From positions 1 to 37,765 of IMG/VR virus record IMGVR_UViG_643348545_000015: a stretch of 37,765 nt of DNA; one strand, given 5' to 3'. This DNA comes from a virus (taxonomy: Duplodnaviria; Heunggongvirae; Uroviricota; Caudoviricetes). The notes beneath the pieces are model-generated. The model worked only from the letters and a program-made list of their open reading frames with translations. It was not told where the DNA came from and did not search any database. This document shows positions 1,184 to 36,234 of this stretch, in pieces; the first letter of the stretch is position 1; the number at the start of each line of letters is the position of its first letter. Position numbers and translations under genes: made by a program.

Positions 1184-1666
1184 ATGGAAGAACTTCACTT
1201 TGTTTACATCAATGCAAATGGTCGTATCGGTGTTCACTCTATACAGAGCATCAGTTATAGCGAAAATCATATACAGGGCATTTGTAAGAACACCGATCGA
1301 ATAAAAACCTTCCGAAAAGACCGCATTCTTAAACAGTACGATTCACCAGAACAAGCCATTCAGGAGTGCGCGTCATTCCTCCCCGAAAACTACTCACATC
1401 TCACCAAGCAGTCTGGTCCGAAAAAAAATACATTCGATGTATGTTTCACCGGATTTAAGAAAGCAGATAAAGAAAGATTGGTTGATAAGGCGAATGAACA
1501 AGGATTAACGGTAAGAACCTCTGTAACCCAAAGCCTTCAGATGCTCTGTTGCGGTTACAATGCAGGCCCATCAAAAGTATCGGCAGCCCGGATGAAAGGC
1601 ACAATCATCATAGATGAGCCTGGCTTTATACATTTTCTTGAAACGGGTGAGATCCCAGATGAATAA
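1184..1666 (+). CDS. Hypothetical cargo protein with C-terminal BRCT-like domain
   Basis: 160-aa ORF with RBS AAGAGG 8 nt before the ATG. C-terminal half (FDVCFTGFKKADKERLVDKANEQGLTVRTSVTQSLQMLCCGYNAGPSKVSAARMKGTIIIDEPGFIHFL) follows the BRCT pattern of NAD-ligase C-termini. N-terminal half unassigned. Confidence 0.6.
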   Translation: MEELHFVYINANGRIGVHSIQSISYSENHIQGICKNTDRIKTFRKDRILKQYDSPEQAIQECASFLPENYSHLTKQSGPKKNTFDVCFTGFKKADKERLVDKANEQGLTVRTSVTQSLQMLCCGYNAGPSKVSAARMKGTIIIDEPGFIHFLETGEIPDE

Positions 1667-7119: not shown

Positions 7120-7635
7120 TCAGAGGCCGAGGGCGTTGCGGTGCGCTTCCATCAGGTCCACACCGTCCACAATTTCCACCATGTTGATAAGGTCCACTTC
7201 ATAGAGCACCTCACCATTTATAGTCAGCTTCGCGTAGCTGTTGGTACTGGTCACTTTGGTGGTGTTGCTTTCGCCCGTCTTCCACTCGCCGGAATCCACT
7301 TCTTTGTGACGTCCACGCACCACAAGCTCCACGGCCTGCACTTCCCCGGTATCGTCACGCTGGATAGAGCCGGTAAAGCGCAACTGGATACCATCCACCG
7401 TGGCTTTGCCCATCTGCTTAAACAGCAGCAGTTCAGTACCACCAATGGAAAATTCCGTATCCAGTGCGCCGTCATCCAGCCCCAGATCCACATCCACTGC
7501 ACCCGGCATTCCGCCGCCGCGATACTTCTCATATTTGCGGGTAAATTTCGGCAGCGTCAGCGACTCAACGATCCCCTGCCAGTTGTTCCCGTCATTAAAC
7601 AGGTTCAGGTGTTTTAATTTGCGTGGTAAAGCCAT
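7120..7635 (-). CDS. FII: Tail tube protein FII
   Basis: 171 aa MALPRKLKHLNLFNDGNNWQG...; order FI-FII-E-T as in P2. Confidence 0.9.
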   Translation of the reverse strand: MALPRKLKHLNLFNDGNNWQGIVESLTLPKFTRKYEKYRGGGMPGAVDVDLGLDDGALDTEFSIGGTELLLFKQMGKATVDGIQLRFTGSIQRDDTGEVQAVELVVRGRHKEVDSGEWKTGESNTTKVTSTNSYAKLTINGEVLYEVDLINMVEIVDGVDLMEAHRNALGL

Positions 7636-7644
7636 GTTGTCCCC

Positions 7645-8817
7645 TTACGCGCTGACCTGGCTGGAGAAATTAACCAGGTACTGATCGGTGATGCGCTGAC
7701 GCAGCATCAGGTTTTCAAGTGGCGGCACTGGCGTGTAGTCGTAGTCGATGGTGAGTTTTCCGGCTTTCAGCGTGTCTTTGTCGTTCACCGACTCATCCAG
7801 CCAGCAATCACCACCAATGAGATAGCCCTGACTGACCAGGCTGCGCATTTTGGCGCGGATACCCTCGATAATGTCGCGGGCCAGCGACGGATTCAGCGGT
7901 TTATCCACCGCCCACATGTGCGCTTCTGCCATCGTGTCCGTCAGCACCTGCGCCGTGCGGGTGTAGTTTTCGAAGGCAAAGAGCGGGTCATCACTCAGGC
8001 AGCGGGAACCCCAGAAGCGAAAACCGTCTTTGCGGATAAGGGTGGTGACGTCGTTCTGGTTCAGCAGTCCCGCATCGGTTGCCGGGTCCTGCAGATCCCA
8101 GAACACATCAGCAGAAATTCCGGTGACACCGTTAACGCCCACGTTGGACAGGCTTTTGTGCCATCCGGTCTGCTCGTCAATTTTGGCGCGCAGACCAAGC
8201 GCACGGGCGGTGGCATAAGCCGTTGCTTCGGCATTCAGCACCGTGTCCCAGCCAGTAAAGTCGGGCCAGATCAGCATTCCTTCACGCTGACTGAAGTTTT
8301 CACGGTAAGTGATTGCTTCCTGCACCGTCTTGCAACCATACGCTGACAGGTAAGCAAATCCACGCAGGCTTTGCGCCACACTCAGCAACTCAGTAGCTAC
8401 CGCCTTCGTGTCGTGACCTGGCACGCCGAGAATGCGCGGTTTAACGCCGAGCTGTGACTGGGCAGATAACAGGGCTTTCATGCCTGTTTTTTTACCTTCA
8501 GCGGTCACTGCGCCGATGATATTGGTCGTGGTTTCTTCTTCCGTTTCACCCTGCGGCACACGCACAACAACGGTCACGGGTTTTGCCTGGTCAGCGATGG
8601 CATCCAGCGAACGAGCCAGCGTGCCTGACTCACCCGCTTTACCGCTGGCAGTCAGCACATCAGTGATCAGCACGGGTTTATTAAGAGGAAACATTTTTGC
8701 ATCGGCATCATCGCCCGTGCAGACCATACCCACGATGGCGGTGCTCACCGTGGTAATGGATCGGGTGCCTTCGTTGACTTCAACAACGCGCACCCCGTGG
8801 TGGTAATCCTGAGCCAT
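7645..8817 (-). CDS. FI: Contractile tail sheath protein FI
   Basis: 390 aa [24 protein letters not shown]...; RBS AGGAGG upstream. Confidence 0.92.
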
Positions 8818-8893
8818 AGTGGCGAACCTCCTGATTGGATTAGGCTTCGCCCTATGTTGAAGTGATTGTGCCTGACAAACAGCTAAGCGCAGT

Positions 8894-8911
8894 TGTACCG
8901 TTATTCACACA
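8894..8911 (-). promoter_or_regulatory. Candidate Ogr-dependent late promoter element (TGT-N12-ACA) for the F operon
   Basis: TGTACCGTTATTCACACA about 80 bp upstream of the FI start; same motif class as at 14972 and 20869. Confidence 0.5.
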
Positions 8912-8959
8912 AAATGACGGTATTTGTCTGCTTTCAGGGATAATCAAAATAAAGCTGAT

Positions 8960-9526
8960 TCAGGGAGATTTATTGTTCTTATTTGCCGGAAATTTTCGAT
9001 AAATGGTAGAAACGCCTACATCAAAAATCAGTGCAATACGCTGTCTTGATTCTCCGTCCTCGAGTAAACGCCCAATCTGTGCCCACTGTTCGCTGGTCAA
9101 CTTAGGACGGCGTCCACCTACTCTGCCTTTAGCACGAGCTGCAGCCAGCCCCGCCCTGGTACGTTCAACTATCAGTTCGCGTTCCATTTCAGCCAGGGCA
9201 CCCATGACATGAAAAAAGAAACGGCCCATTGGGGTGCTGGTATCAATACTGTCAGTCAGGCTTCGGAAATTCACGCCACGCTGGCGCAGCTCTTCTATCA
9301 GCGTAACAAGATGCCGCATACTGCGCCCCAGTCTGTCCAGCTTCCAGACAACCAGCGTGTCTCCTGCCGATAGTGTCCTGAGCAGCTTTTTCAGCCCCGG
9401 TCTGTCGGACTTGGTGCCACTGATTTTATCCTCAAAAATCCGCTCACATCCCGCACAGTTCAGTGCATTGCGTTGCAAATCGGTGTTCTGGTCATTTGTT
9501 GACACGCGTACATAGCCAATAAGCAT
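8960..9526 (-). CDS. Serine-recombinase DNA invertase (Hin/Gin/Cin/Pin family)
   Basis: MLIGYVRVSTNDQNTDLQRNAL...GDTLVVWKLDRLGRSMRHLV... with C-terminal HTH; start taken at the ATG 6 nt after GGGGG (the ORF track begins 2 codons earlier at 9532). Confidence 0.9.
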   Translation of the reverse strand: MLIGYVRVSTNDQNTDLQRNALNCAGCERIFEDKISGTKSDRPGLKKLLRTLSAGDTLVVWKLDRLGRSMRHLVTLIEELRQRGVNFRSLTDSIDTSTPMGRFFFHVMGALAEMERELIVERTRAGLAAARAKGRVGGRRPKLTSEQWAQIGRLLEDGESRQRIALIFDVGVSTIYRKFPANKNNKSP

Positions 9527-9581
9527 GATCATCCCCCTGAATAAAAACCGGAGATGATGCCAGTTAGCCGTTATCTCTGCA

Positions 9582-9607
9582 TTTTCATAAACGTTGGTTT
9601 GGGAGAA
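9582..9607. repeat. Invertase crossover site, left (26 bp)
   Basis: TTTTCATAAACG-TT-GGTTTGGGAGAA; 14 bp identical, in inverted orientation, to the site at 11440-11465. Confidence 0.75.
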
Positions 9608-10090
9608 GGCTCTGCATTACCGGTTGGGGTGCCTGTTCCGTGGCCTTCAGCCACACCGCCGACAGGCTGGCTGAAATGCAACGGTGCAGCTTTTTCTGCT
9701 GAAGAATACCCGGAACTGGCAAAGGCTTATCCGACAAATAAATTGCCTGATTTACGTGGTGAGTTTATTCGTGGCTGGGATGATGAACGTGGTGTGGATA
9801 GTGGGCGAACTCTGCTTTCAGCGCAAGGAGATGCTATTCGAAACATTACTGGCGGTTTTGGTCAGTTGCGCGTAAACAGCGAAATAAATGCAATTGTTGA
9901 TGTTCAAAGTGTGAGTGGTGCTTTTTACGGAGGTACCTCAGTCCGGAATAACATCAACGTATCTATGACATACGCTAATGACCGAAAAATCCGACAAGAT
10001 GTTCACTTCTCGGCGGCAAATGTTGTTCCAACAGCAAATGAAAATCGTCCACGTAACATCGCCTTTAATTATATTGTGAGGGCCGCATGA
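9596..10090 (+). CDS. Alternative tail-fibre C-terminal cassette (silent in this orientation)
   Basis: The frame opens exactly at the crossover site (INVGLGEGSALP...) and parallels AYLGLGE in H; it would fuse to the H constant part after inversion. Confidence 0.65.
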   Translation, partial: GLGEGSALPVGVPVPWPSATPPTGWLKCNGAAFSAEEYPELAKAYPTNKLPDLRGEFIRGWDDERGVDSGRTLLSAQGDAIRNITGGFGQLRVNSEINAIVDVQSVSGAFYGGTSVRNNINVSMTYANDRKIRQDVHFSAANVVPTANENRPRNIAFNYIVRAA

Positions 10091-10692
10091 TGAATAAAGC
10101 TGTATTAAATAGCGAACTCATCACCACAAAGGCGGGAGACATTACCGTTTACAATTATGATGGTGAGACACGAGAATATATTTCCACATCAACTGAATAT
10201 CTTGCTGTGGGTGTCGGTATCCCGGCATGTTCCTGTTTAGATGCTCCTGGAACACATAAGGCTGGTTATGCAATCTGCCGTTCGGCAGATTTAAACTCAT
10301 GGGAATATGTGCCAGACCATCGCGGTGAAGTTGTCTATAACACCGAAACGGGAGAATCAAAAGAAATCACAGCTCCGGGTAATTACCCTGAAAATACAAC
10401 CACTATCGTCCCGTTAACGCCATACGATAAATGGGATGGTGAGAAATGGGTGACGGATACCGAGGCACAGCATAGCGCCGCAGTAGAAGCGGCAGAAGCA
10501 CAGCGCCAGTCGCTGATTGATGCTGCAATGGCTTCCATCAGTCTGATTCAACTGAAATTACAGGCCGGGCGGAAGCTGACGCAGGCAGAAACCACCCGAC
10601 TTAACGCCGTGCTGGATTACATTGACGCGGTGACGGCAACAGATACCAGCACTGCGCCGGATGTCATCTGGCCTGAACTGCCGGAGGCGTAG
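10087..10692 (+). CDS. Alternative tail-fibre assembly protein (G')
   Basis: 201 aa; C-terminus ...[26 protein letters not shown] parallels the G C-terminus ...[24 protein letters not shown]. Confidence 0.75.
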   Translation: MMNKAVLNSELITTKAGDITVYNYDGETREYISTSTEYLAVGVGIPACSCLDAPGTHKAGYAICRSADLNSWEYVPDHRGEVVYNTETGESKEITAPGNYPENTTTIVPLTPYDKWDGEKWVTDTEAQHSAAVEAAEAQRQSLIDAAMASISLIQLKLQAGRKLTQAETTRLNAVLDYIDAVTATDTSTAPDVIWPELPEA

Positions 10693-11083
10693 GCCATTCA
10701 ATATCTGGAGCACTGGAGGTATCAACCAGTTCCAGTGCGTCCAGATAATCCAGCCACAAATTATATTGCGCCAGTTCCTCACCTTTCAGACGACCAATAG
10801 CGGCTTTACCAGGCCATTGCTTACTGTTCATGTATTCGTTGGCCTGTTCAATAAGTATACTTTTCATTCCCTCCGCTTCAGCTATTTCCTGTTCCTGTGT
10901 CTTCGCTGGATATTCAGTAAGTACAGGGTAGTTATCCGGGTTATTGATAATAATTTTCCCCGTACTCTGACCATTCATAAGTTCATAATAAAGAGCATCT
11001 TCAATATCGAAAGTATCATCGGGAATATCGCTGTTATTTTCAGAGAAAAATCCCTGAACAGATGGGGACCATTTCATTTTCAT
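10664..11083 (-). CDS. G: Tail-fibre assembly protein G (current orientation)
   Basis: 139 aa, directly downstream of H on the same strand. Confidence 0.85.
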
Positions 11084-12501
11084 AATTTCCCAATTCCTAA
11101 AATGTGGACATCATCAGCCTTACGGGCATTCCAGGTGACAATTACATCGGTAGAGTGACGATTAACTGAGATTGCATATGCTTCGTTAGTCGAGCCAGAA
11201 ACTTTTGTAGCAAACACAGCAAACAGGACACCAAATGACTGGGGCCATTTATAGCCTGACAGCTGATAATTACCATTATTCAGTGTTACAGCTTTGGCTG
11301 CTGCACTTGATGGAATCGTCAGCCACTGAAGTATCAACCCTCCTGGCAAAAGTTGTTTTCCGTAATAATCCCTCACCCCACTAAATGAAGCCATGTCCGG
11401 TATCTGATTTTCCCCTGTTCCCACACCCCGTTTTGCCGCTTCTCCCAAACCAAGGTATGCGAGAAGACCAGCTACATCCTTTCCACTCAAATTAGTCAGC
11501 GTATTGTCCAGCGGTTGTTTACCTGCTAGCGCATTAAGCATTGTCGTGGCAAAGTTCGGGTCATTCCCCAGCGCCGCCGCCAGTTCGTTCAATGTATCCA
11601 GTGCCGCAGGTGCAGAACCCACCATTCCTGCAATCGCCGATTTCACAAAAGCCGTAGTGGCAATCTGTGTATTGTTGACCGACTGCGCCGCAGTAGGTGC
11701 TGTTGGCGTTCCGGTAAGTGCCGGACTCGACAGCGGCGCTTTCAGTGCCAGCGCATTATTAATAGTGGTACTGAATTTCGGGTCATTGTTAATGGCTGCG
11801 GCAATTTCTTTCAGTGTGTCCAGCGTGGCTGGCGCACCGTTAATCAGAGCAGTAATAGCGGCCTGAACAAACTCTGTGGTCGCAATCCGAGTGGTGTTAT
11901 TTCCTGCTGCAGGCGTCGGCGCTTTTGGTTCTCCGGTAAATGTCGGATTATGTTTCTGCGCATACTGGGTATGAGGATCTTGTGCGGCAATGTGGTTTCT
12001 CATCTGGTCATCCACATACAGCTTTAATTCCAGGACTTTATCATCCACGTATTTACGGGTTGCCAGCACTACAGCAGGGTCGATTTTCAGGATGATATTG
12101 TCCGTGCTGCTGGTAATCAGCACCATGCGCACGGTCTGGGTACGCCCGCTGCCTTCAGCCAGTTGCGGCTTATAGCTTTCCGGGCAGTTTCCCACGGCAA
12201 TCAATGCCCCGGACTCATCAAACAGGCCCACTTCACGTATCCACCAACCGCCCTCGTTTTCAGGGATCACCTGTTCAGCAATAATCTGGCTACTGTTCTG
12301 CGGGTCGATATAAAGCATATTCAACGCAGCCCGGCGTTTCTCATTTACCAGTGCCGTCTGCTTTGCGTCCGGCGTCGGTAATACTCCGCCGCCATCGCCG
12401 ACCGCCATATGGGTAATTTTTAGCGGCACACCGAGCGCGGCGGCGCTGGCAAGTTTCGCCGCGCCAATATCCGTCAGCAGGGTATAAAATTTTGTGCTCA
12501 T
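11080..12501 (-). CDS. H: Tail fibre protein H
   Basis: 473 aa [39 protein letters not shown]... with repeated TTAFV/ALxGK fibre motifs; C-terminal ~128 aa lie inside the invertible segment. Confidence 0.9.
11440..11465. repeat. Invertase crossover site, right (26 bp), inside H
   Basis: TTCTCCCAAACC-AA-GGTATGCGAGAA; inverted partner of 9582-9607. Confidence 0.75.
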
Positions 12502-13103
12502 GGATTCACTCTCATTGTGTCAATAACATGGACCGCCCCGCCTTCATGCGCGGTGCCGCCAGAAATAATTGTTTCGTTGATATACGGATAGATCGTGATT
12601 TCTTCACCAAGATAGCTGGCGGCCCCTACCCAGTGCGGGCCACTGGTCTGCAGATTGATGGACATGCCGATCATGTGACGGCTACATGGTTTGGCATCGC
12701 TTATCAGCCGCTCAAGTTCCAGATAGGTATCTTCAGTGATGCCCTGATCCTGCACGCCGATATCCAGGCGAAACGTGCCTGGTATTTCTCCGGTCTGCCA
12801 CCACTCAATAATGCGGATCAGGAAGCCGAACGGCTCCACCACCCGCCGCACGGCACTGGTGGTTCCTTTGTGCTGATGAATATAAAAAGCATCCTTCACC
12901 ACCTGGCGTTTGACGCTTTCTGTCCAGCTCTCGTCCCAGCGATCCACAGAGAACGCCCAGGCGAGATAAGGCAGGAAACTGACCGGACAGGTCGCAGGAT
13001 TCCACAAGTCACGCAGTGGCACCTGCAGATCAGAAATCCCGCTGCAGGTTCGCGCCAGTCGGCGCTCCAGTGGTGTTGAACCCGGTGGCAGCAGACTATT
13101 CAT
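12498..13103 (-). CDS. I: Baseplate/tail protein I
   Basis: 201 aa [20 protein letters not shown]..., between J and H. Confidence 0.85.
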
Positions 13104-23753: not shown

Positions 23754-23787
23754 GTTTAAACTGGCTGTCGGAACAGCCAGTTTAAAC
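23754..23787. terminator. Bidirectional hairpin between Q and the convergent cargo operon
   Basis: Perfect 15-bp stem GTTTAAACTGGCTGT / ACAGCCAGTTTAAAC with loop CGGA. Confidence 0.55.
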
Positions 23788-24630
23788 ACCGGCACCAATG
23801 AAATCGCCATATGAATCTTCTTCAAGGCTGATGTATTCTACCCTCCATTGATCCATCCGCCTCAATGCATACAGGGAGAAATGAGTATCAGCAACAGCTA
23901 TGCACGTATTCAATTCTATAAGTTCTGAATGCCCCAAGGTTGGATCACCATAAAACTTATAAAACAAAGCCTTTAGATCAGAACATGTTTGTTCAGCCGC
24001 TCTTCTGGCATCGGGGCCACCTTCAGTTGCATCATAAACAACATTGATAGAAAGCTCATATGGTATGCCTTCCTCAAGATCGTTAAATCTTTCTTCGCCC
24101 AAATCGAAAAAAACTCCGATCAAATGCTCTGCGTTTGTGGCGATAATATCCGCAACTTCTTTTTCGAAAATAAACTTTTTATCCTCGTCGTAAGCCCGCA
24201 AGCGCTCTTCAAACGAGTTAGGAAACGCTGGACGACCATACTTAGCAGCTAACCATTGCTTAAGAGCTTGTTTCTCTTCTGTGCTAATGGAGAATGCTGG
24301 ATCGTTTTCCTCACAACAGAAAGCTTCTTTAGGAATGATGACTTTCCTTTCATGCCGGAGCTCTACTGCATTCTTCTTCGCACTTTCTGGGTTTTCAAAA
24401 CATAGATCGAGTATTCTCGGATGCTTAGCTCTTTTCATCCTGCTTGACCCCTTTTTCAAGGGGCCAAACATCAGTTCCACGTTTTTTTCTGAATTACTCT
24501 GTAAATCACAATCATGCGTTATAACTACAACTTTATGGTTCGTTTCATCAGGCTGCAGAATTCCAAGTGAAACGGCATCATCATGTTTAAGTACATGCCC
24601 CTGACGCCATGATGTTCCTCGTACCAACAT
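23782..24630 (-). CDS. Hypothetical protein, cargo operon gene 3
   Basis: 282 aa; ATG 9 nt after the gene 2 stop; no motif I can assign by eye; AT-rich codon usage. Confidence 0.6.
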   Translation of the reverse strand: MLVRGTSWRQGHVLKHDDAVSLGILQPDETNHKVVVITHDCDLQSNSEKNVELMFGPLKKGSSRMKRAKHPRILDLCFENPESAKKNAVELRHERKVIIPKEAFCCEENDPAFSISTEEKQALKQWLAAKYGRPAFPNSFEERLRAYDEDKKFIFEKEVADIIATNAEHLIGVFFDLGEERFNDLEEGIPYELSINVVYDATEGGPDARRAAEQTCSDLKALFYKFYGDPTLGHSELIELNTCIAVADTHFSLYALRRMDQWRVEYISLEEDSYGDFIGAGV

Positions 24631-24639
24631 AAATGTGAT

Positions 24640-25302
24640 TTATTCCTCTACCGTTCCAGGAATTGAAATAGATGACTTCCAATCATCTGTCGGTTTCGCC
24701 TTGCTTGCTAAGTAATTGGCCGATTCAGCAGCAGCATTCATCGCTTTAGCTTCATCAATCAATACCTGAACTGCCCTATTCCAATCCTCACCTTCTTTTA
24801 CTACGTCCATTAATGACTTACCATTAAATGCTTTCATTTTCACCAATAGCTTCGCATCATGGAGTCCAGCTTTGGAAAAAGAGTCAGCGACATTACTAAG
24901 GTTGGTAATGAATTGCACTTTTGAAGCATCATCAGGCTGGTTCTCCCCTGACAACCATTTATAGAGAGCCTGCCGAGTTATCCCCAAATCCTTTGCCAGT
25001 TCTGACATTGATGGAGACAGCACTTCTCGAATATTAGCTAAATGTTGGGCAACATTCCTGACATCAACCTCAGGAGAAATTGCAGGCGTGTACGTTGATT
25101 CTATGGAATCAAATGCAAACTGAACCCTTGGCTGAACATACTGACGCCATTGCTTATAAGCATTTACAGGGTATGAAGCCCCCGTACCAACTAATAGTAA
25201 AGATGCGGCGACAGCAACAACACCTGATACACATGAGCTTGACTGCAAATTTGGAGAATATCGATCTACAGAGCCTATGCTTCCGGTGGGAATTGCATAC
25301 AT
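24640..25302 (-). CDS. Hypothetical protein with N-terminal hydrophobic helix and HTH motif, cargo operon gene 2
   Basis: Start MYAIPTG... 7 nt after GGAGGTGA; hydrophobic CVSGVVAVAASLLLVGTGASY; HTH-like SMSELAKDLGITRQALYKWLSGE. Confidence 0.6.
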   Translation of the reverse strand: MYAIPTGSIGSVDRYSPNLQSSSCVSGVVAVAASLLLVGTGASYPVNAYKQWRQYVQPRVQFAFDSIESTYTPAISPEVDVRNVAQHLANIREVLSPSMSELAKDLGITRQALYKWLSGENQPDDASKVQFITNLSNVADSFSKAGLHDAKLLVKMKAFNGKSLMDVVKEGEDWNRAVQVLIDEAKAMNAAAESANYLASKAKPTDDWKSSISIPGTVEE

Positions 25303-25321
25303 TTTAGTCACCTCCGTTGTT

Positions 25322-26131
25322 TCAGTGCCATTTAGTACGGGCAAAATCTGAAACCATGCCTTCAAATGCTTCTTTAACTTTACTATGCAACGAAAGAATC
25401 TGTTTTTCAATTAACTGCAAATCAGTTGACATGTTGCCTTCAACATAATGATCTGTATCAATTATTGCGTGCATACGATGCTCTGTGTTACTAAATCTCG
25501 GCAACGGCAGTAAACCATTAGGAATCATATCTGGCGGAAAACCTAGCTGACCATTCATCTTATGTATTCGTGAAACCATAAATCCATTAGGGATCAATGG
25601 CTCAACACATGTCTGATATACGGACTCTTGTATAGACTGTATTGGCGTCCATCCGAAATCAACACCATGAAGTTCCTTTACAAGATACTGCTCAATTGTT
25701 TCGCTTTTCTCAGGAAACACAGCATCCAAATATCGAAGCCCAATCCGACTTAACAGCGATGGCTTAGCAAATTCTAGAACTTTGCTCAGACCAAGTATCA
25801 ATGACGAGATGAAAGATACATGGTTATCATAATATGTTGTATGGAACGTAATGAAATCGTTGCCTAAAACAAAACCAGATCTTCTATCTGCATCAATCAT
25901 CAACCAACTTGTCACAGGCTCAAATGAATGTACCGGTGGCTCATTGGGGTTTTTTATTTCAAATTTCAACTGAGTTGTATTGGAAACCTCAAATAAAGGA
26001 AATCCCTCAACTCTTAGCGCATCTTGTATGTCTGGAACATACTTACTCATTGCAGCTATTGGAGTAAACTTTACCTGTACCAATGCATAGTAAACGGGCG
26101 CATTGGACATACGTTCGCTGTTAGTACTCAT
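25322..26131 (-). CDS. Hypothetical protein, cargo operon gene 1
   Basis: 269 aa, RBS AAGGAGG before the ATG. The N-terminal pattern NAPVYYALVQVKF is vaguely reminiscent (from memory, unverified) of the uncharacterised TIGR04255 family. Confidence 0.6.
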   Translation of the reverse strand: MSTNSERMSNAPVYYALVQVKFTPIAAMSKYVPDIQDALRVEGFPLFEVSNTTQLKFEIKNPNEPPVHSFEPVTSWLMIDADRRSGFVLGNDFITFHTTYYDNHVSFISSLILGLSKVLEFAKPSLLSRIGLRYLDAVFPEKSETIEQYLVKELHGVDFGWTPIQSIQESVYQTCVEPLIPNGFMVSRIHKMNGQLGFPPDMIPNGLLPLPRFSNTEHRMHAIIDTDHYVEGNMSTDLQLIEKQILSLHSKVKEAFEGMVSDFARTKWH

Positions 26132-27433: not shown

Positions 27434-29521
27434 TCAAATTTTCAGCAAGGGGACAGTTATTGCCACGAGTCCAAGGGGACAGTTATTGCCACGAGTCCAA
27501 GGGGCGCAAGCGCCCTGGTCGGCTGCCGCCTCCTGAACGTCAACGGCCTTACGAACCATTTTCCACTTCACGGCATGAGTGCAGATTTTGCCCTCTGCAA
27601 TGGGTGACCAGATGCCATAAATACGAATGCCGTGATCGCCATAGGCGGTCGGCTCTTCGTTGATTTCATAAGCGGTTCTGATGAGGTGATATTTACGGGG
27701 AACCAGTACGCCGCCCTGCTTCATGATGTAGGTGGCAAAACAACCAGCATCAGCTGCAGCCAGAATGGCATCAAGGCGCGGGTTATCCAGTACCGGCGCA
27801 CCTGCTTTTTTGTCACCCTGTTGCCTTGCCGCCTGACCAGCCAGCAATCGCAGTTCACGGTAAGCCTGACGCCCCGGAATGCCAAAGAAGCGGAATTGCT
27901 GAACACGATGCAGAGACGCCCAGGCATTAACGTATTCAGCGTTATCACGCAGAGATTTACCCGTTTCCTTGCTGATCTCGCCAGCCAGACCACGCCCGTC
28001 AATGTTCTTACTGATGTATTTCGCGATGTAGCTAGTCGGCGTTCCTTTGCGCGGGTTTATCAGCTCAGACTTAAAGCGTGGCCCCGTGTTATTACCCAGC
28101 TCCTCGCGGTCTTCACGGATAGCAAACTTACGCAACAATGCAGTAATGGCGCGGCGGTCTTTTTTGCGCATGAAACACAACAGGTGCCAGTGAACTGTGC
28201 CGTCATGATGCGGCTCAGCCACCCGCACGCCATACCAGCGCAACCCGGCTTTGTGCATCGCCTTACGAAATGCAGCAAACATGCCGACCAGATAATCACT
28301 GCTTTGTCTTACCGTCGCATTTGTCCAAGTCGGGTTGGGCCTACCGTTATTTAGCGTGGAATGGAAACGTGACGGACAGGTGATGGTGTAGAAAACGGCG
28401 CAGTCACCGCGCATTTCCGCGATAAGCTCCAGACCTTTAACACAGGCCATCATCTCATTGCGGCGATGCGCAGGGTTGCTGCTGCTGGCGTTTACCACAT
28501 CCTCCATGTCCAGCGTGTCGCCGTCTTCGTTCACCAGTTCATGAGAACGGAAAAACTCCAGCGACTTACGGCGCTGCTCACGTTTATGCATCACGGCTTC
28601 ATAGCTGACATAGGGAGATGCTTTTTTGCTGACCAGGCAAACAGCACGCAACTGCTCTTCCCGCCATTCGCAACGCATCTTCCACAATTTCCGATACCAC
28701 CAGTCGGCGCACAGCATACGCGCCAGCGACCCCGGAATGAGTTCATAGGGCACGGGTTTACGGCGGTTTCTTTTCCGGCGGAGTTGCTCAAACGCAGGCG
28801 GTATGACATCCAGTCGCAGGGTTTCCGCCGCCACCTTTTCCCATGTCTTGCGGATTTCTTCTGGCTTAACGTCATCGGTGGCATACAAATCGCCACAAGC
28901 GGCATCAAGGCACATGCTCATATGCGCAGCTACCAGGGTGGACAGGCGTTTCACCTGATCCTGACTCATTTCAGGCAGGATCAGCAGACCGTCCAGCCCT
29001 TCATGGCTTGCCATAAAGCGAAAAGAAGTGGATAGCTGACTGTCGCGTACATGCTCCAGTCGTTCCAGACATGGCTTAATCGTCTCACGCAAATAGCGGG
29101 AATAAGCCTTTGGCCTGCCCAGGCTGCTGAAGTATTCAATACGTTGCATCAGCGGCTTGCTGATATGGGAAGGCTGGGCGTTAACGTCCGCCAGAATGAC
29201 CATGCCCGGATTAAAACGCTGCTGCTCATGCGCCAGCTTTGCCCGGCTAATGAGCTTATCCTGCTCCATTTCGCGCTGGACAGGATCACGTGATTCATTA
29301 AAGAAATAACGCTCCCATACCTGATCACTCAGAGCCTCGCGGCGCAGTTGTTCCTGCTCGTTATCGGTAGCGTACAGAGTGATCAGGTTTGAAAGCGCAG
29401 AAACCGGCGCAACTTCCGCCGGGTCCAGATAAGGGTTAATGGCCTTTTTCGGGCTGTTCCATGAGAATGCTGCGGCGACCTCGTTAAAGCCGCTGCAGTT
29501 GTTCATATCAGCATGGCTCAT
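27434..29521 (-). CDS. A: Rolling-circle replication initiator endonuclease A
   Basis: 695 aa with HUH-type motif VHWHLLCF and tyrosine motif YIAKYISK. Confidence 0.9.
27446..27504. repeat. Tandem direct repeat, 2.3 copies of a 26-bp unit
   Basis: CAAGGGGACAGTTATTGCCACGAGTC at 27446-27471 and 27472-27497, plus CAAGGGG; lies in the last ~25 codons of A. Confidence 0.9.
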
Positions 29522-30375
29522 GCACGCACTCCGTACACGGCAGAACTATCCACGCCACGCGAAGGATCAAATCCCACCCAGCAGCGCGGCCCGGAAACAG
29601 CGATGATTTCTGTTGCAGATTTACTCTCACCAGCTGCTACACCGATGCTGCGTTTTGCCTTGATGTAGTGGTGAGTAAAATTGCGATACAGCGAACGGAT
29701 CAGGGATGTATCACTGTTAGAAACAATGACCGGATGTCCTTCTGATGACCGATGTTCAAGAACGGATGCCAGGTGATACTGGTCATCTTCAGTGAAACCA
29801 TCAGTGTGATAGCCGGAAAACGTACCGTCATACGGCGGATCGCAATACACCACATCCCCCACCTGCAGCATCGCCAGCGTTTCATCAAAGCTTGCGCAGA
29901 TAAACGTTGCTCGCTGGGCTTTTTCTGCAAATGTGCGAAGTTCTTTTTCAGGGAAATACGGATTTTTATAATTACCGTAGGGAATGTTGAAATGCCCGCT
30001 CTTGTTATAGCGACATAAACCACGGTAACCGTGACGATTGAGATACAGGAAATATACCGCTTTCATGAAATCAGTAATTTCAGTGGAGTAATTAAACTCC
30101 TGCCTTATGTTGTAATAAGCCACCTCCCTGTTTGCGATCTCAAATAAAACTCTGGCGCGAGATATAAACGATTCACAATCAGCGGCAACCTTTTTATAGA
30201 GGTTGATTAAATCAGGATTAATATCCGCAACCAGATAGCTGGGGTAATCCGTCTCCATCATCACAGCACAAGAACCCGCGAAAGGTTCAACCAGTCGCGG
30301 GCCTGCAGGAAGGTGTTTTTTCAGTTCGGACATAATGGCGGTTTTATTACCCGCCCATTTCAGGATGGTGCTCAT
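29518..30375 (-). CDS. DNA adenine methyltransferase (Dam-like)
   Basis: Start [11 protein letters not shown]... after AGGAGGTG; DPPY motif ([10 protein letters not shown]); stop overlaps the A start. Confidence 0.85.
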
Positions 30376-30550
30376 ACAGCACCTCCTGCAATAACATATC
30401 CTAAAGCTTCTAATGGGGTTAATGAGCGAATTGATAGCATCACCCATTGTTCTGAAACTGCCATGACGTCATTAACCGGAAGCACATGAGAGATAACCGC
30501 GGCCCATTCCCTACCCGTAAATACGCCATGCTTCCGGTAATGACTCCAAC

Positions 30551-31054
30551 TTACTGATAGTGTTTTATGTTCAGATAATGCCCGATGACCTTGTCATGCA
30601 GCTCCACCGATTTTGAGAACGACAGTGACTTCCGTCCCAGCCTTGCCAGATGTTGTCTCAGATTCAGATTATGTCGCTCAATGCGCTGAGTGTAACGCTT
30701 GCTGATAACGTGCAGCTTTCCCTTCAGGCGTGATTCATACAGCGGCCAGCCATCCGTCATCCATACCACGACCTCAAAGGCCGACAGCAGGCTCAGAAGA
30801 CGCTCCAGTGTGGCCAGAGTGCGTTCACCGAAGACGTGCGCCACAACAGTCCTCCGTATCCTGTCATACGCGTAAAACAGCCAGCGCTGACGTGATTTAG
30901 CACCGACGTAGCCCCACTGTTCGTCCATTTCAGCGCAGACAATCACATCACTGCCCGGTTGTATGCGCGAGGTTACCGACTGCGGCCTGAGTTTTTTAAG
31001 TGACGTAAAACCGTGTTGAGGCCAACGCCCATAATGCGTGCACTGGCGCGACAT
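30551..31054 (-). CDS. insB: IS1 InsB frame (transposase made as InsAB' by -1 frameshift)
   Basis: ...[44 protein letters not shown]... open frame overlapping the 3' end of insA. Confidence 0.9.
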
Positions 31055-31248
31055 CCGACGCCATTCATGGCCATATCAATGATTTTCTGGTGCGTACCGG
31101 GCTGAGAGGCGGTGTAAGTGAACTGTAGTTGCCATGTTTTACGGCAATGAGAGCAGAGATAGCGCTGATGTCCGGCAGTGCTTTTGCCGTTACGCACCAC
31201 GCCTTCAGTAGCGGAGCAGGAAGGACATCTGATGGAAATGGAAGCCAC
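30973..31248 (-). CDS. insA: IS1 InsA
   Basis: 91 aa [40 protein letters not shown]... Confidence 0.93.
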
Positions 31249-31447
31249 GCAAGCACCTTAAAATCACCATCATACACTAAATCAGTAAGTTGGCAGCATT
31301 ACCCATGCTTCCATTCGCAAAGAGAAAGAACATCACCAACTTTATAGCCACGATCGTCTTTACGAAGTTCAGCCGTCTTTTGACCTGCAACCACAGCGTT
31401 GAAATACTTAGGTGCAATTTTTAATTGATGGATACGCACAGCCCCTG

Positions 31448-31675
31448 TCATACAGCACCTCCGTTGTAATGTTTGCCTTTCAGCTCTGCGATTTCCTGGC
31501 AAGTAATGCAAAGCTGCACACCCGGAATGGCGCGGCGTCGTGCTGGCGGAATTGGCGCTTCACACTCAATGCAAAGCACGCGAGACACGCCCGGTGTTTT
31601 GGCACGAGCAGCACGGATATGGCGCTGGCGTTCTTCTTCAACGCGCTGCTGTACGAGATCCATTGCATCAGCCAT
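31448..31675 (-). CDS. TraR/DksA-type C4 zinc-finger protein
   Basis: 75 aa with [26 protein letters not shown]; stop overlaps the ASCH start. Confidence 0.7.
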
Positions 31676-34279: not shown

Positions 34280-35296
34280 ATGACTGTCAGAAAACAGCCA
34301 AACGGTAAATGGTTGTGCGAGTGCTATCCCAATGGACGCAATGGCAAGCGCGTGCGTAAGCAATTTGCTACGAAAGGCGAAGCCATTGCTTTTGAAAGCT
34401 TCACAATGGAAGAAGTGAACAAAAAACCATGGCTGGGGGAAAAGGAAGATCGGCGACACCTATCAGAATTAATTGAGCAGTGGTATTCCCTGTATGGTCA
34501 AACACTCGCAGACCCCAAGCGCCTCATAGCGAAACTTAGAATTATCTGTAATGGTCTAGGCGATCCCATCGCTTCAGAACTGACAGCCGGTGACTTTACG
34601 AAATACCGCGAAGCACGGTTAAAAGGTGAAGTACGAAATGAAGATGGCACGTTTATGTCGCCCGTTAAGCCCCGCACGGTAAACCTTGAACAGCGCAATC
34701 TATCATCTGTTTTTGGTACACTGAAAAAGCTGGGCCACTGGTCAGCCCCCAACCCGCTTGCTGGGCTGCCAACATTTAAAATTGCTGAGAGTGAATTGGC
34801 GTTCCTGACCCCGGAAGAAATTAAACGTCTGCTGGATGCCTGCGCCGATTCTCAAAGCTCCAGCCTGCTTTTGATTGCAAAAATATGCCTGGCCACCGGC
34901 GCACGCTGGAGCGAAGCCGAAAACCTGCAGAGTCATCAGGTATCAAAATACCGTATCACTTATACCAAGACCAAAGGCAAGAAAAACCGAACTGTGCCTA
35001 TTTCTAAGGATTTATATGAAGAACTGCCTAAGAATAGGGGGAAGTTATTCACCCCATGCAGAAAAGCCTTTGAGCGTGCAGTAAAGCGGGCTGGTATCGA
35101 TCTGCCAGAGGGTCAATGTACTCACGTTCTGCGTCATACATTCGCTAGCCATTTTATGATGAATGGTGGAAACATATTGGTTTTGCGGGATATCCTAGGA
35201 CATTCAGATATAAAAATGACCATGGTCTATGCACACTTCGCCCCAGACCATTTAGAAGATGCCGTAACTAAAAATCCTTTATTTAATTTGAGGTAA
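34280..35296 (+). CDS. int: Tyrosine integrase (P2 Int family)
   Basis: 338 aa with C-terminal catalytic region ...HVLRHTFASHFMMNGGNILVLRDILGHSDIKMTMVYAHF... Confidence 0.93.
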   Translation: MTVRKQPNGKWLCECYPNGRNGKRVRKQFATKGEAIAFESFTMEEVNKKPWLGEKEDRRHLSELIEQWYSLYGQTLADPKRLIAKLRIICNGLGDPIASELTAGDFTKYREARLKGEVRNEDGTFMSPVKPRTVNLEQRNLSSVFGTLKKLGHWSAPNPLAGLPTFKIAESELAFLTPEEIKRLLDACADSQSSSLLLIAKICLATGARWSEAENLQSHQVSKYRITYTKTKGKKNRTVPISKDLYEELPKNRGKLFTPCRKAFERAVKRAGIDLPEGQCTHVLRHTFASHFMMNGGNILVLRDILGHSDIKMTMVYAHFAPDHLEDAVTKNPLFNLR

Positions 35297-36060: not shown

Positions 36061-36105
36061 ATGTAGGAATTTCGGACGCGGGTTCAACTCCCGCCAGCTC
36101 CACCA
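36061..36105. repeat. attR core: displaced 45-bp 3' end of ssrA
   Basis: Identical to 1016-1060. Confidence 0.9.
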
Positions 36106-36234
36106 ATCATGATTGGACGGTGTAAGGACTACACCAACAAAAACAGGAAGTTATAAGTCTCAGCAGGACACCGACCAGACGGTGAGGAGACAAAAAAGGA
36201 TACGCAACGGAGTCGCGACTCCCTATGACATTAA

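Follow-up and report, generated by a model that had tools for sequence, protein, structure and literature searches.

The tail-fibre module described here very probably constitutes a two-state inversion switch of the Pin/Gin type, presumably aided by Fis, through which a P2/186/Fels-2-like prophage would hedge its bets on host range. The window (the whole 37,765-nt stretch of DNA analysed) represents an E. coli prophage of this kind integrated at ssrA, the integration site of Fels-2, and ssrA att repeats are present. Its early region carries an IS1 and, given this insertion, the prophage may not be fully inducible. The fibre gene is part of the late operon, downstream of J- and I-like genes, and relatives in RefSeq are syntenic, with neighbours annotated as 'phage tail protein I', 'baseplate assembly protein' and GPW. 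Full collinearity with NZ_CP027340.1 was considered and dropped: past position 30535 the two part ways, the window having gained an additional IS1 and ending differently on the right.

A serine DNA invertase of the Pin/Gin/Cin/Hin ('Din') family is encoded at 8960-9526 on the minus strand, outside the invertible segment and reading away from it. The ORF (8960-9532) is intact and matches the Pfam domains Resolvase (3e-53) and HTH_7 (7e-16). The Mu Gin structures 3UJ3 and 4M6F match residues 1-183 at 8e-93, as opposed to only 1.5e-34 for gamma-delta resolvase. The start codon is most likely the ATG at 9526, which yields a 188-aa protein aligned with residue 1 of Gin, rather than position 9532. 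The invertase of the ATCC 8739 prophage is 97.3% identical in amino acid sequence; the values for e14 PinE, P1 Cin and Mu Gin are 84.8%, 77.4% and 73.9%, respectively. The original prediction of a Hin/Cin-family invertase beside the segment is thus borne out as to the enzyme (Pfam matches; 74-85% identity to Gin, Cin and PinE), although Pin (e14)-like is the better name. None of the five proteins of the locus scores above a family cut-off in NCBIfam.

The catalytic Ser9 is kept within a YVRVS motif, and Y5, R7, R65, R68, H106 and M114 are likewise retained, the last two being the wild-type residues. Fis independence arises from substitutions at the H106 and M114 positions; the crystallised Gin constructs (3UJ3 and 4M6F) carry a V at the position of M114. 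Also kept are K46, K47, R50 and Q150-x-x-R-L, corresponding to the family residues that contact Fis or the enhancer (basic residues at 46, 47 and 50, and the Q150-x-x-R-L motif; PMC3798978).

The segment flanked by the recombination sites was delimited from its inverted repeats. The best such repeat in the interval 8800-12600 pairs 9582-9608 with 11439-11465 (27 nt, 81% complementary). Within it lie the only two exact copies of the 14-mer TTCTCCCAAACCAA that the window contains, one on each strand, at 9594-9607 (minus) and 11440-11453 (plus); with up to two mismatches allowed, 0.35 matches would be expected by chance. The 14-bp core originally ascribed to the two sites is accordingly real but slightly too short, the exact common run being 15 bp (CTTCTCCCAAACCAA). 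The invertase-proximal crossover site (26 bp, 9582-9607) reads TTTTCATAAACG-TT-GGTTTGGGAGAA on the plus strand, with the central dinucleotide at 9594-9595; its reverse complement, TTCTCCCAAACC-AA-CGTTTATGAAAA, equals the distal site (26 bp, 11440-11465; TTCTCCCAAACC-AA-GGTATGCGAGAA, central dinucleotide at 11452-11453) at 21 of 26 positions. As had been predicted, both sites have the same central dinucleotide; it is asymmetric (AA/TT), and the sites themselves show imperfect dyad symmetry. Their centres are 1858 bp apart, in agreement with the proposed segment of about 1.86 kb between inverted 26-bp sites; counted inclusively from one central dinucleotide to the other (9594-11453), the segment measures 1860 bp.

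A single 26-bp pattern recovers the annotated boundaries of the Mu G segment, P1 cixL and the ends of the e14 P segment, and both sites in the window fit it. The proximal site is identical in all 26 positions to the e14 site adjoining pinE, and the repeat that PMC12529663 reports in e14 corresponds to its core. The distal site departs from the consensus in its outer half, having GGTAT in place of GGTTT. No third site was found in the whole window (up to two mismatches to the 14-mer), nor any additional site between 8000 and 13000 when up to five mismatches to a degenerate 26-mer were tolerated. The switch is a simple two-state one; a three-repeat locus as in EPEC, or a shufflon of the Min type, was ruled out, there being no sites beyond the two.

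The fibre gene contains the distal site, which encodes ...YLGLGE. This gene, at present 473 codons long (11080-12501, minus strand), begins with a constant part of the P2 H type (11454-12501, minus strand; 354 aa) whose N-terminus matches Pfam Phage_tail_fib (1e-63). When the segment is flipped in silico, an open, in-frame fibre of 514 aa replaces that of 473 aa, and both junctions and reading frames are kept. The prefix common to the two forms ends at residue 354, with ...AYLGLGE, so that the crossover point falls at the constant/variable boundary as originally proposed.

The cassette currently fused to this shaft, Sv (11080-11439, minus strand), specifies 119 aa after GLGE and matches no Pfam domain. 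It is rare among phage records: in the matches listed, only phage Cartapus has a full-length counterpart (95.8%). The alternative cassette, Sv' (9608-10090, plus strand), is silent at present; it specifies 160 aa after GLGE, matches the Phage Tail Collar domain of Pfam (5e-16) and is 59% identical in amino acid sequence to both e14 StfE and the ATCC 8739 allele. Collar-type tips are common across phages. The two tips have no sequence relationship to each other, one being a Collar protein and the other lacking any Pfam match.

Behind each cassette stands one Caudo_TAP gene, and all four reading frames are intact. The chaperone of the current orientation (10664-11083, minus strand; 139 aa, Caudo_TAP 6e-24) starts within the stop of H (ATGA); its identity with the ATCC 8739 allele is 98.6%, and with e14 TfaP 50%. 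The TfaE-like chaperone, silent at present (10090-10692, plus strand; 200 aa, Caudo_TAP 4e-32), overlaps the Sv' stop in the same fashion (ATGATGA) and is 92.5% identical to e14 TfaE. The two chaperone genes overlap by 29 nt at the 3' end of the 139-aa gene. Two alternative fibre C-termini and two chaperones on opposite strands, exchanged by an in-frame flip, are what the original prediction had described. Just outside the segment, an ATG at 9557 opens a 177-aa ORF in the present orientation and would open a 136-aa leader-Sv chimera after inversion; the same arrangement is present in e14 stfE.

A candidate for the Fis-binding recombinational enhancer was sought at the 5' end of the invertase gene. 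The stretch at 9437-9508 (gene nt 19-90) gives a gap-free alignment with cin nt 19-90, where the P1 record places the enhancer, and contains two Fis-like G-N13-C cores, at gene nt 22-36 and 71-85. The spacing counted between these cores is 49 bp; that of the Fis sites of Hin is 48 bp. The centre of the proximal core is about 96 bp from the centre of the left crossover site, the corresponding distance in hin being about 100 bp (PMC3798978). Identity over the stretch is 76% with P1, 74% with Mu and 88% with e14, slightly above that of the remainder of the invertase gene, although some conservation is to be expected anyway because the stretch lies in coding sequence. Given these similarities, 9437-9508 may act as a Fis enhancer, and the switch may depend on Fis.

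By this reading, invertase dimers would bind the two inverted 26-bp sites and, together with host Fis bound to the enhancer near the start of the invertase gene, assemble an invertasome. Cuts staggered by 2 bp at the central AA/TT, a 180-degree rotation of one tetramer half and religation would then invert the 1.86 kb between the sites. Because the distal site is placed at the constant/variable boundary, the 354-aa N-terminal shaft would stay constant and receive, in each orientation, one of two unrelated tips, with that tip's own chaperone gene brought directly downstream, in translational coupling. Since the fibre genes belong to the late operon, the orientation of a lysogen at the time of induction would decide the fibre carried by the entire burst, which amounts to bet-hedging on host range. 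Analogy with Mu and P1, together with the presence of two unrelated C-terminal cassettes, suggests that receptor specificity would change with orientation.

Inversion has taken place in sister prophages. In two assemblies of E. coli ATCC 8739 (NC_010468.1 and NZ_CP033020.1), the prophages are oppositely oriented: the flanks (2307 and 2660 bp) are identical, the 1831-bp interior of one is the exact reverse complement of the other's, and both breakpoints are located within the sites. The same is seen in 2020N21-246 versus 2020N21-246-1, where identical flanks enclose a 3080-bp interior, including IS1203, that is an exact reverse complement, again with breakpoints within the sites. Inversion thus took place at sites identical or nearly identical to those studied here, although it could have been carried out by another Din invertase of the host acting in trans. 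Among related E. coli complete genomes (matches covering at least 80% of a 3.8-kb query), at least 32 have the orientation of the window and at least 41 the flipped one. The original prediction had named a single orientation combined with a dead invertase as the outcome that would speak against it; Ser9 is intact, and sister prophages of one strain occur in both orientations.

These data bear on the possibility that the locus is a frozen relic, with an inherited architecture in a copy that has lost the ability to invert, be it because its sites are weak, its invertase gene is silent or the prophage is defective; only the 473-aa fibre would then be made by the lysogen. Four complete genomes among the matches listed carry the prophage region at 99% identity or more, and all have the orientation of the window. 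A query with the flipped region found, among the matches listed from complete E. coli genomes, none at 99% identity or more and only relatives at 92-96%. All genomes at this level of identity, and the window itself, thus have the one orientation, and no inverted form of this exact copy was seen among the matches listed. The off-consensus GGTAT in the distal site, the IS1 of the early region and the frameshifted cassettes of the close relative 2012EL-2448 point in the same direction. So does the lack of a sigma-70 consensus promoter for the invertase within 9527-9620, for what a promoter scan is worth whose site counts did not exceed those in shuffled sequence. However, in the 2020N21-246 pair both sites are identical to those of the window over all 26 bp, so the very GGTAT-containing site has recombined in that lineage. 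In addition, the invertase, both cassettes and both chaperones are intact, and locking cannot be argued from a mere four or five STEC assemblies that may be clonal, given the ratio of at least 32 to at least 41 among relatives. We therefore regard a frozen locus as improbable and favour a functional switch; the rate at which the window's own strain switches is something we infer.

We also considered that inversion might serve the lysogen and not the virion, with a stand-alone tip protein made from the ATG at 9557 blocking a surface receptor against other phages. RefSeq annotates a CDS at 9557-10090, and the flipped ATCC 8739 assembly has an annotation for the reciprocal 136-aa chimera, whose reading frame is open. 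In nucleotide sequence, this part of the locus shows 85% identity with the e14 stfE/pinE region, and the e14 chimera StfE2 is reported to block T2 adsorption (PMC12529663). Against this, the prophage is complete and its fibre has an obvious role in the virion, the tips are unlike those of e14 (59% identity in one case, no match in the other), and the GGAG preceding the ATG at 9557 is merely 3 nt away from it. No promoter-like site was found for this ORF, in a scan that was equally uninformative (counts no higher than in shuffled sequence), and a comparable ORF extension in Mu was a prediction of gene-finding software. An exclusively lysogenic role appears extremely unlikely on these grounds. 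A combined role, in which the 'silent' cassette would also be expressed as a free tip (177 or 136 aa) that masks a receptor and excludes phages, the switch serving both virion host range and lysogen defence by analogy with e14, is very unlikely. The preferred reading remains that of a virion host-range switch.

Recognition of the switch has practical consequences. RefSeq names the parts no more precisely than 'recombinase family protein' or 'phage tail protein', and the silent cassette figures there as a separate CDS. For host-range prediction or comparison of assemblies, the locus should be treated as having two states, with a fibre of either 473 or 514 aa; differences in orientation between assemblies of one strain are biology and not errors. 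Since the current tip is rare, and among the matches listed is common only to phage Cartapus, identification of its receptor would be new information. As a discovery the locus carries little weight, the mechanism having long been known: switches of this type are represented by Mu G, P1 C, e14 P, Fels-2 fin and the P2-like prophages of EPEC.

Among the closest counterparts is the P segment of e14 with PinE, in which fibre-tfa, tfa'-Sv' and an invertase gene reading away from the segment succeed one another as in the window. The e14 segment is reported to be 1797 bp long, versus 1858 bp here. Unlike the present element, e14 is what is left of a decayed lambdoid prophage; its StfP is short (209 aa) and its stfE is annotated as a pseudogene, whereas the window has a complete P2-type tail module and a constant shaft of 354 aa. 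We rejected homology over the whole J/I/fibre module: the I, J and H-shaft proteins have no tblastn match in e14, the current tip has no detectable match there, and only the invertase, the two sites, tfaE and the 5' portion of Sv' are homologous.

The Mu G/Gin and P1 C/Cin systems have in common with the window an invertase of the same family, 26-bp sites with an AAACC-NN-GGTTT core, and an Sc plus Sv/U versus Sv'/U' layout; the candidate enhancer of the window occupies the same position, early in the invertase gene, as the one annotated in P1. Their segments, at 3 kb in Mu and 4.2 kb in P1, are larger and belong to different phage backbones; the tips and chaperones of the window have no match at E<1e-3 to Mu S, U, S' and U' or to P1. 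The direction of the invertase gene also sets P1 apart: cin points at its segment, with cixL overlapping the 3' end of the gene, while the invertase genes of the window, Mu and e14 read away.

With phage P2 itself, the element has in common the late tail order W-J-I-H-chaperone-FI-FII and an H protein with a Phage_tail_fib N-terminal domain. P2 is not known to have an invertase or a further cassette in the interval from G to FI; the slot matching this interval is where the window holds its second cassette pair and the invertase. Fels-2 fin (Salmonella LT2/LT7) and the loci of EPEC E2348/69, compared here by published description, are likewise P2-family prophages with a Pin-like invertase adjoining the fibre genes. 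In both cases the two orientations have been observed, by fin-mediated inversion of fibre genes between LT2 and LT7 (PMC7953296) and by PCR and sequencing of phase-variable inversions in the P2-like prophages of EPEC (PMC4272514). One E2348/69 locus has three repeats and four variants, as opposed to the two sites of the window, and cassette alleles vary between prophages.

The strongest inverted repeat in a scan of positions 8800-12600 pairs 9582-9608 with 11439-11465. Within it, the 14-mer TTCTCCCAAACCAA occurs in just two exact copies in the whole 37.8-kb window, one per strand (0.35 matches are expected by chance when up to two mismatches are allowed). The 26-bp site next to the invertase gene (9607-9582, read on the reverse strand) is TTCTCCCAAACC-AA-CGTTTATGAAAA, and the distal site (11440-11465, as read on the plus strand) is TTCTCCCAAACC-AA-GGTATGCGAGAA. 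They agree at 21 of 26 positions, share an asymmetric central dinucleotide and have their centres 1858 bp apart, so the original prediction of inverted 26-bp sites with a common 14-bp core and central dinucleotide, bounding a segment of ~1.86 kb, holds. A single degenerate 26-bp pattern, applied to Mu, P1, e14 and the window, recovers both annotated boundaries of the Mu G segment, the annotated P1 cixL and both ends of the e14 P segment; in the window it finds both sites and nothing else nearby. The proximal site is identical at 26 of 26 positions to the e14 site beside pinE. Its core, TTGGTTTGGGAGAAGG, equals the e14 repeat given in PMC12529663.

The adjoining reverse-strand ORF (8960-9532), where an invertase had been predicted, matches the Pfam Resolvase (3e-53) and HTH_7 (7e-16) families. 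Since both its alignment to crystallised Mu Gin (3UJ3, 4M6F; E = 8e-93, Gin residues 1-183) and its RefSeq relatives begin at the third codon, the gene is placed at 8960-9526 (188 aa). The protein is 97.3% identical to its counterpart in the sister prophage of E. coli ATCC 8739, 84.8% to e14 PinE, 77.4% to P1 Cin and 73.9% to Mu Gin. The catalytic serine, whose mutation had been named as a sign of inactivity, is present (S9), and Y5, R7, R65 and R68 are also retained. Substitutions at the positions of H106 and M114 make Gin Fis-independent; both residues are wild type here, while the crystallised Gin constructs have V at the position of M114. The basic helix-B residues K46, K47 and R50 and the Q150-x-x-R-L motif are retained as well; these elements touch the Fis-bound enhancer and are conserved in DNA invertases only (PMC3798978).

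In the P1 record the Cin enhancer is annotated at nt 19-90 of cin, a stretch across which the window, P1, Mu and e14 invertase genes align without gaps. Fis-like G-N13-C cores lie at nt 22-36 and 71-85 of the window gene, positioned as in pin and gin, and the proximal core is ~96 bp from the centre of the left site, the equivalent distance in hin being ~100 bp (PMC3798978). Identity in this stretch versus the next 300 nt is 76% versus 72% for P1 and 88% versus 81% for e14. The arrangement agrees with a Fis-dependent invertasome but, as the stretch is itself coding, falls short of proof.

The fibre gene (11080-12501, minus strand, 473 aa) carries a P2-type Phage_tail_fib N-terminal domain (1e-63). 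On the plus strand, a silent cassette ORF with a Phage Tail Collar domain ends at 10090. Two ORFs for tail-fibre assembly proteins (Caudo_TAP), at 10087-10692 on the plus strand and 10664-11083 on the minus strand, converge with a 29-nt overlap. When 9594-11453 is flipped in silico, both junction sequences stay the same, and an in-frame 160-aa Collar-domain tip takes the place of the 119-aa one after ...AYLGLGE, giving a fibre of 514 aa whose first 354 residues are common to both forms. In either orientation the chaperone start overlaps the fibre stop (ATGA, ATGATGA). Repeat, site and domain searches thus show every part of the described structure, including the site at the AYLGLGE constant/variable boundary and the paired cassettes and chaperones on opposite strands. 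The tips are unrelated to one another. No Pfam domain matches the expressed tip, and among 50,697 phage records only that of phage Cartapus matches it over its full length. The silent tip is of a widespread collar type, yet shares just ~59% identity with its alleles in e14 and ATCC 8739; the cassettes are thus mosaic from one prophage to another.

A 177-aa ORF starts from an ATG at 9557, beyond the segment, and would become a 136-aa chimera upon inversion. RefSeq relatives list the silent cassette as a stand-alone 'phage tail protein' CDS (9557-10090, plus strand), an annotation that is probably an artefact of the switch. A promoter scan found none for this ORF. In e14 the reciprocal chimera, StfE2, reportedly prevents T2 from adsorbing (PMC12529663); by analogy a similar role could be imagined for the 9557 product but is unlikely.

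Whether both orientations exist was answered differently by near-identical and by sister prophages. Four complete E. coli genomes match the 3.8-kb region almost or fully perfectly (three at 100% identity, one at 99.3%), all four in the window orientation, and a search with the flipped sequence returned no copy at 99% identity or above. In contrast, two independent ATCC 8739 assemblies (NC_010468.1 and NZ_CP033020.1), whose prophage is ~93.5% identical to the window, have identical flanks of 2307 and 2660 bp around a 1831-bp interior that is exactly reverse-complemented; the breakpoints fall within the 26-bp sites, and the inner half-site has a T/C difference that moves with the segment. Likewise, strain 2020N21-246 and its derivative 2020N21-246-1, with both sites identical to those of the window, differ by exact reverse complementation over 3080 bp. 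The sister prophages are direct evidence of inversion; misassembly is an unlikely cause, since the repeats are so short, although the invertase responsible may have acted in trans. Among the matches listed in complete E. coli genomes that cover at least 80% of the query, 32 are of window type and 41 flipped.

Some of these loci have peculiarities of their own. In the 2020N21-246 pair (NZ_CM125665.1 / NZ_CM125675.1) an IS1203 within the segment disrupts one fibre cassette and flips along with it. A 99.3%-identical relative in strain 2012EL-2448 (NZ_CP027586.1, 1012234-1016957) encodes the same invertase protein; its segment is ~77 bp shorter, and the annotation marks frameshifts in the silent cassette and in both chaperone genes, reflecting either decay or assembly error. 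The circular E. coli record NZ_OU342919.1 holds the region twice (7150-11061 and 4890936-4894847), with ~19 kb between the copies, counted across the origin of the record, and one copy per orientation; these could be two prophages, or an assembly-junction duplication that caught a mixed population.

The window contains a complete P2/186/Fels-2-like prophage of ~35 kb, bounded by two directly repeated, exact 46-bp copies of the ssrA 3' end (1016-1061 and 36061-36106; tmRNA gene ssrA, 698-1060), which mark its attachment sites, with an integrase ORF at 34280-35296. RefSeq annotation of the closest record gives ogr, D, tape measure, tube, sheath, the switch, I, J, W and V, together with lysis genes, capsid, terminase, portal, replication genes, CII, CI and integrase. 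Because the fibre genes sit in the late tail operon, orientation at induction should, by analogy with Mu, determine the type of fibre on the phage released. An IS1 (30536-31299; InsA 30973-31248 and InsB 30551-31054, both minus strand) lies in the early region beside a Dam-like methylase gene (29518-30447) and apparently truncates a DUF3850-like ORF (31299-31511); it is missing from the otherwise 99.7% identical prophage of NZ_CP027340.1 and may affect inducibility. Three minus-strand cargo genes (23782-26131) between the portal and DinI-like genes, named by RefSeq as hypothetical, transcriptional regulator and TIGR04255 family, received no PADLOC assignment and a Pfam match (HTH) in the middle gene only; they could be an uncharacterised cassette, with accessory or defence functions, in a variable prophage region. 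Between ssrA/attL and ogr, a 160-aa hypothetical protein (1184-1666, plus strand) weakly matches the PADLOC candidate family PDC-S48 over its C-terminal 70 residues (1.8e-07).

The mechanism is that of Mu G/Gin, P1 C/Cin, e14 P/Pin and Salmonella Hin, and assignment to the Pin/Gin type is very likely correct. In DNA, e14 is 84.6% identical across 9065-9783 (from the invertase across the proximal site into the beginning of the silent cassette) and 89% across the tfaE-like region, 10040-10819. In EPEC E2348/69, Goldberg et al. detected inversions that were phase-variable in two P2-like prophages; they validated a complex four-variant locus by PCR and ascribed the inversions to tail-fibre alternation (PMC4272514). 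Zaworski et al. found a tail-fibre inversion beside the pin homologue fin between the Fels-2 prophages of LT2 and LT7 (PMC7953296), and Milman et al. found programmed inversions to be enriched for tail-fibre genes (PMC9881135). In conclusion, the observation behind the original prediction is confirmed and its interpretation supported; with a textbook mechanism and published cases in the P2 family, the switch is of an already known kind, correctly read.
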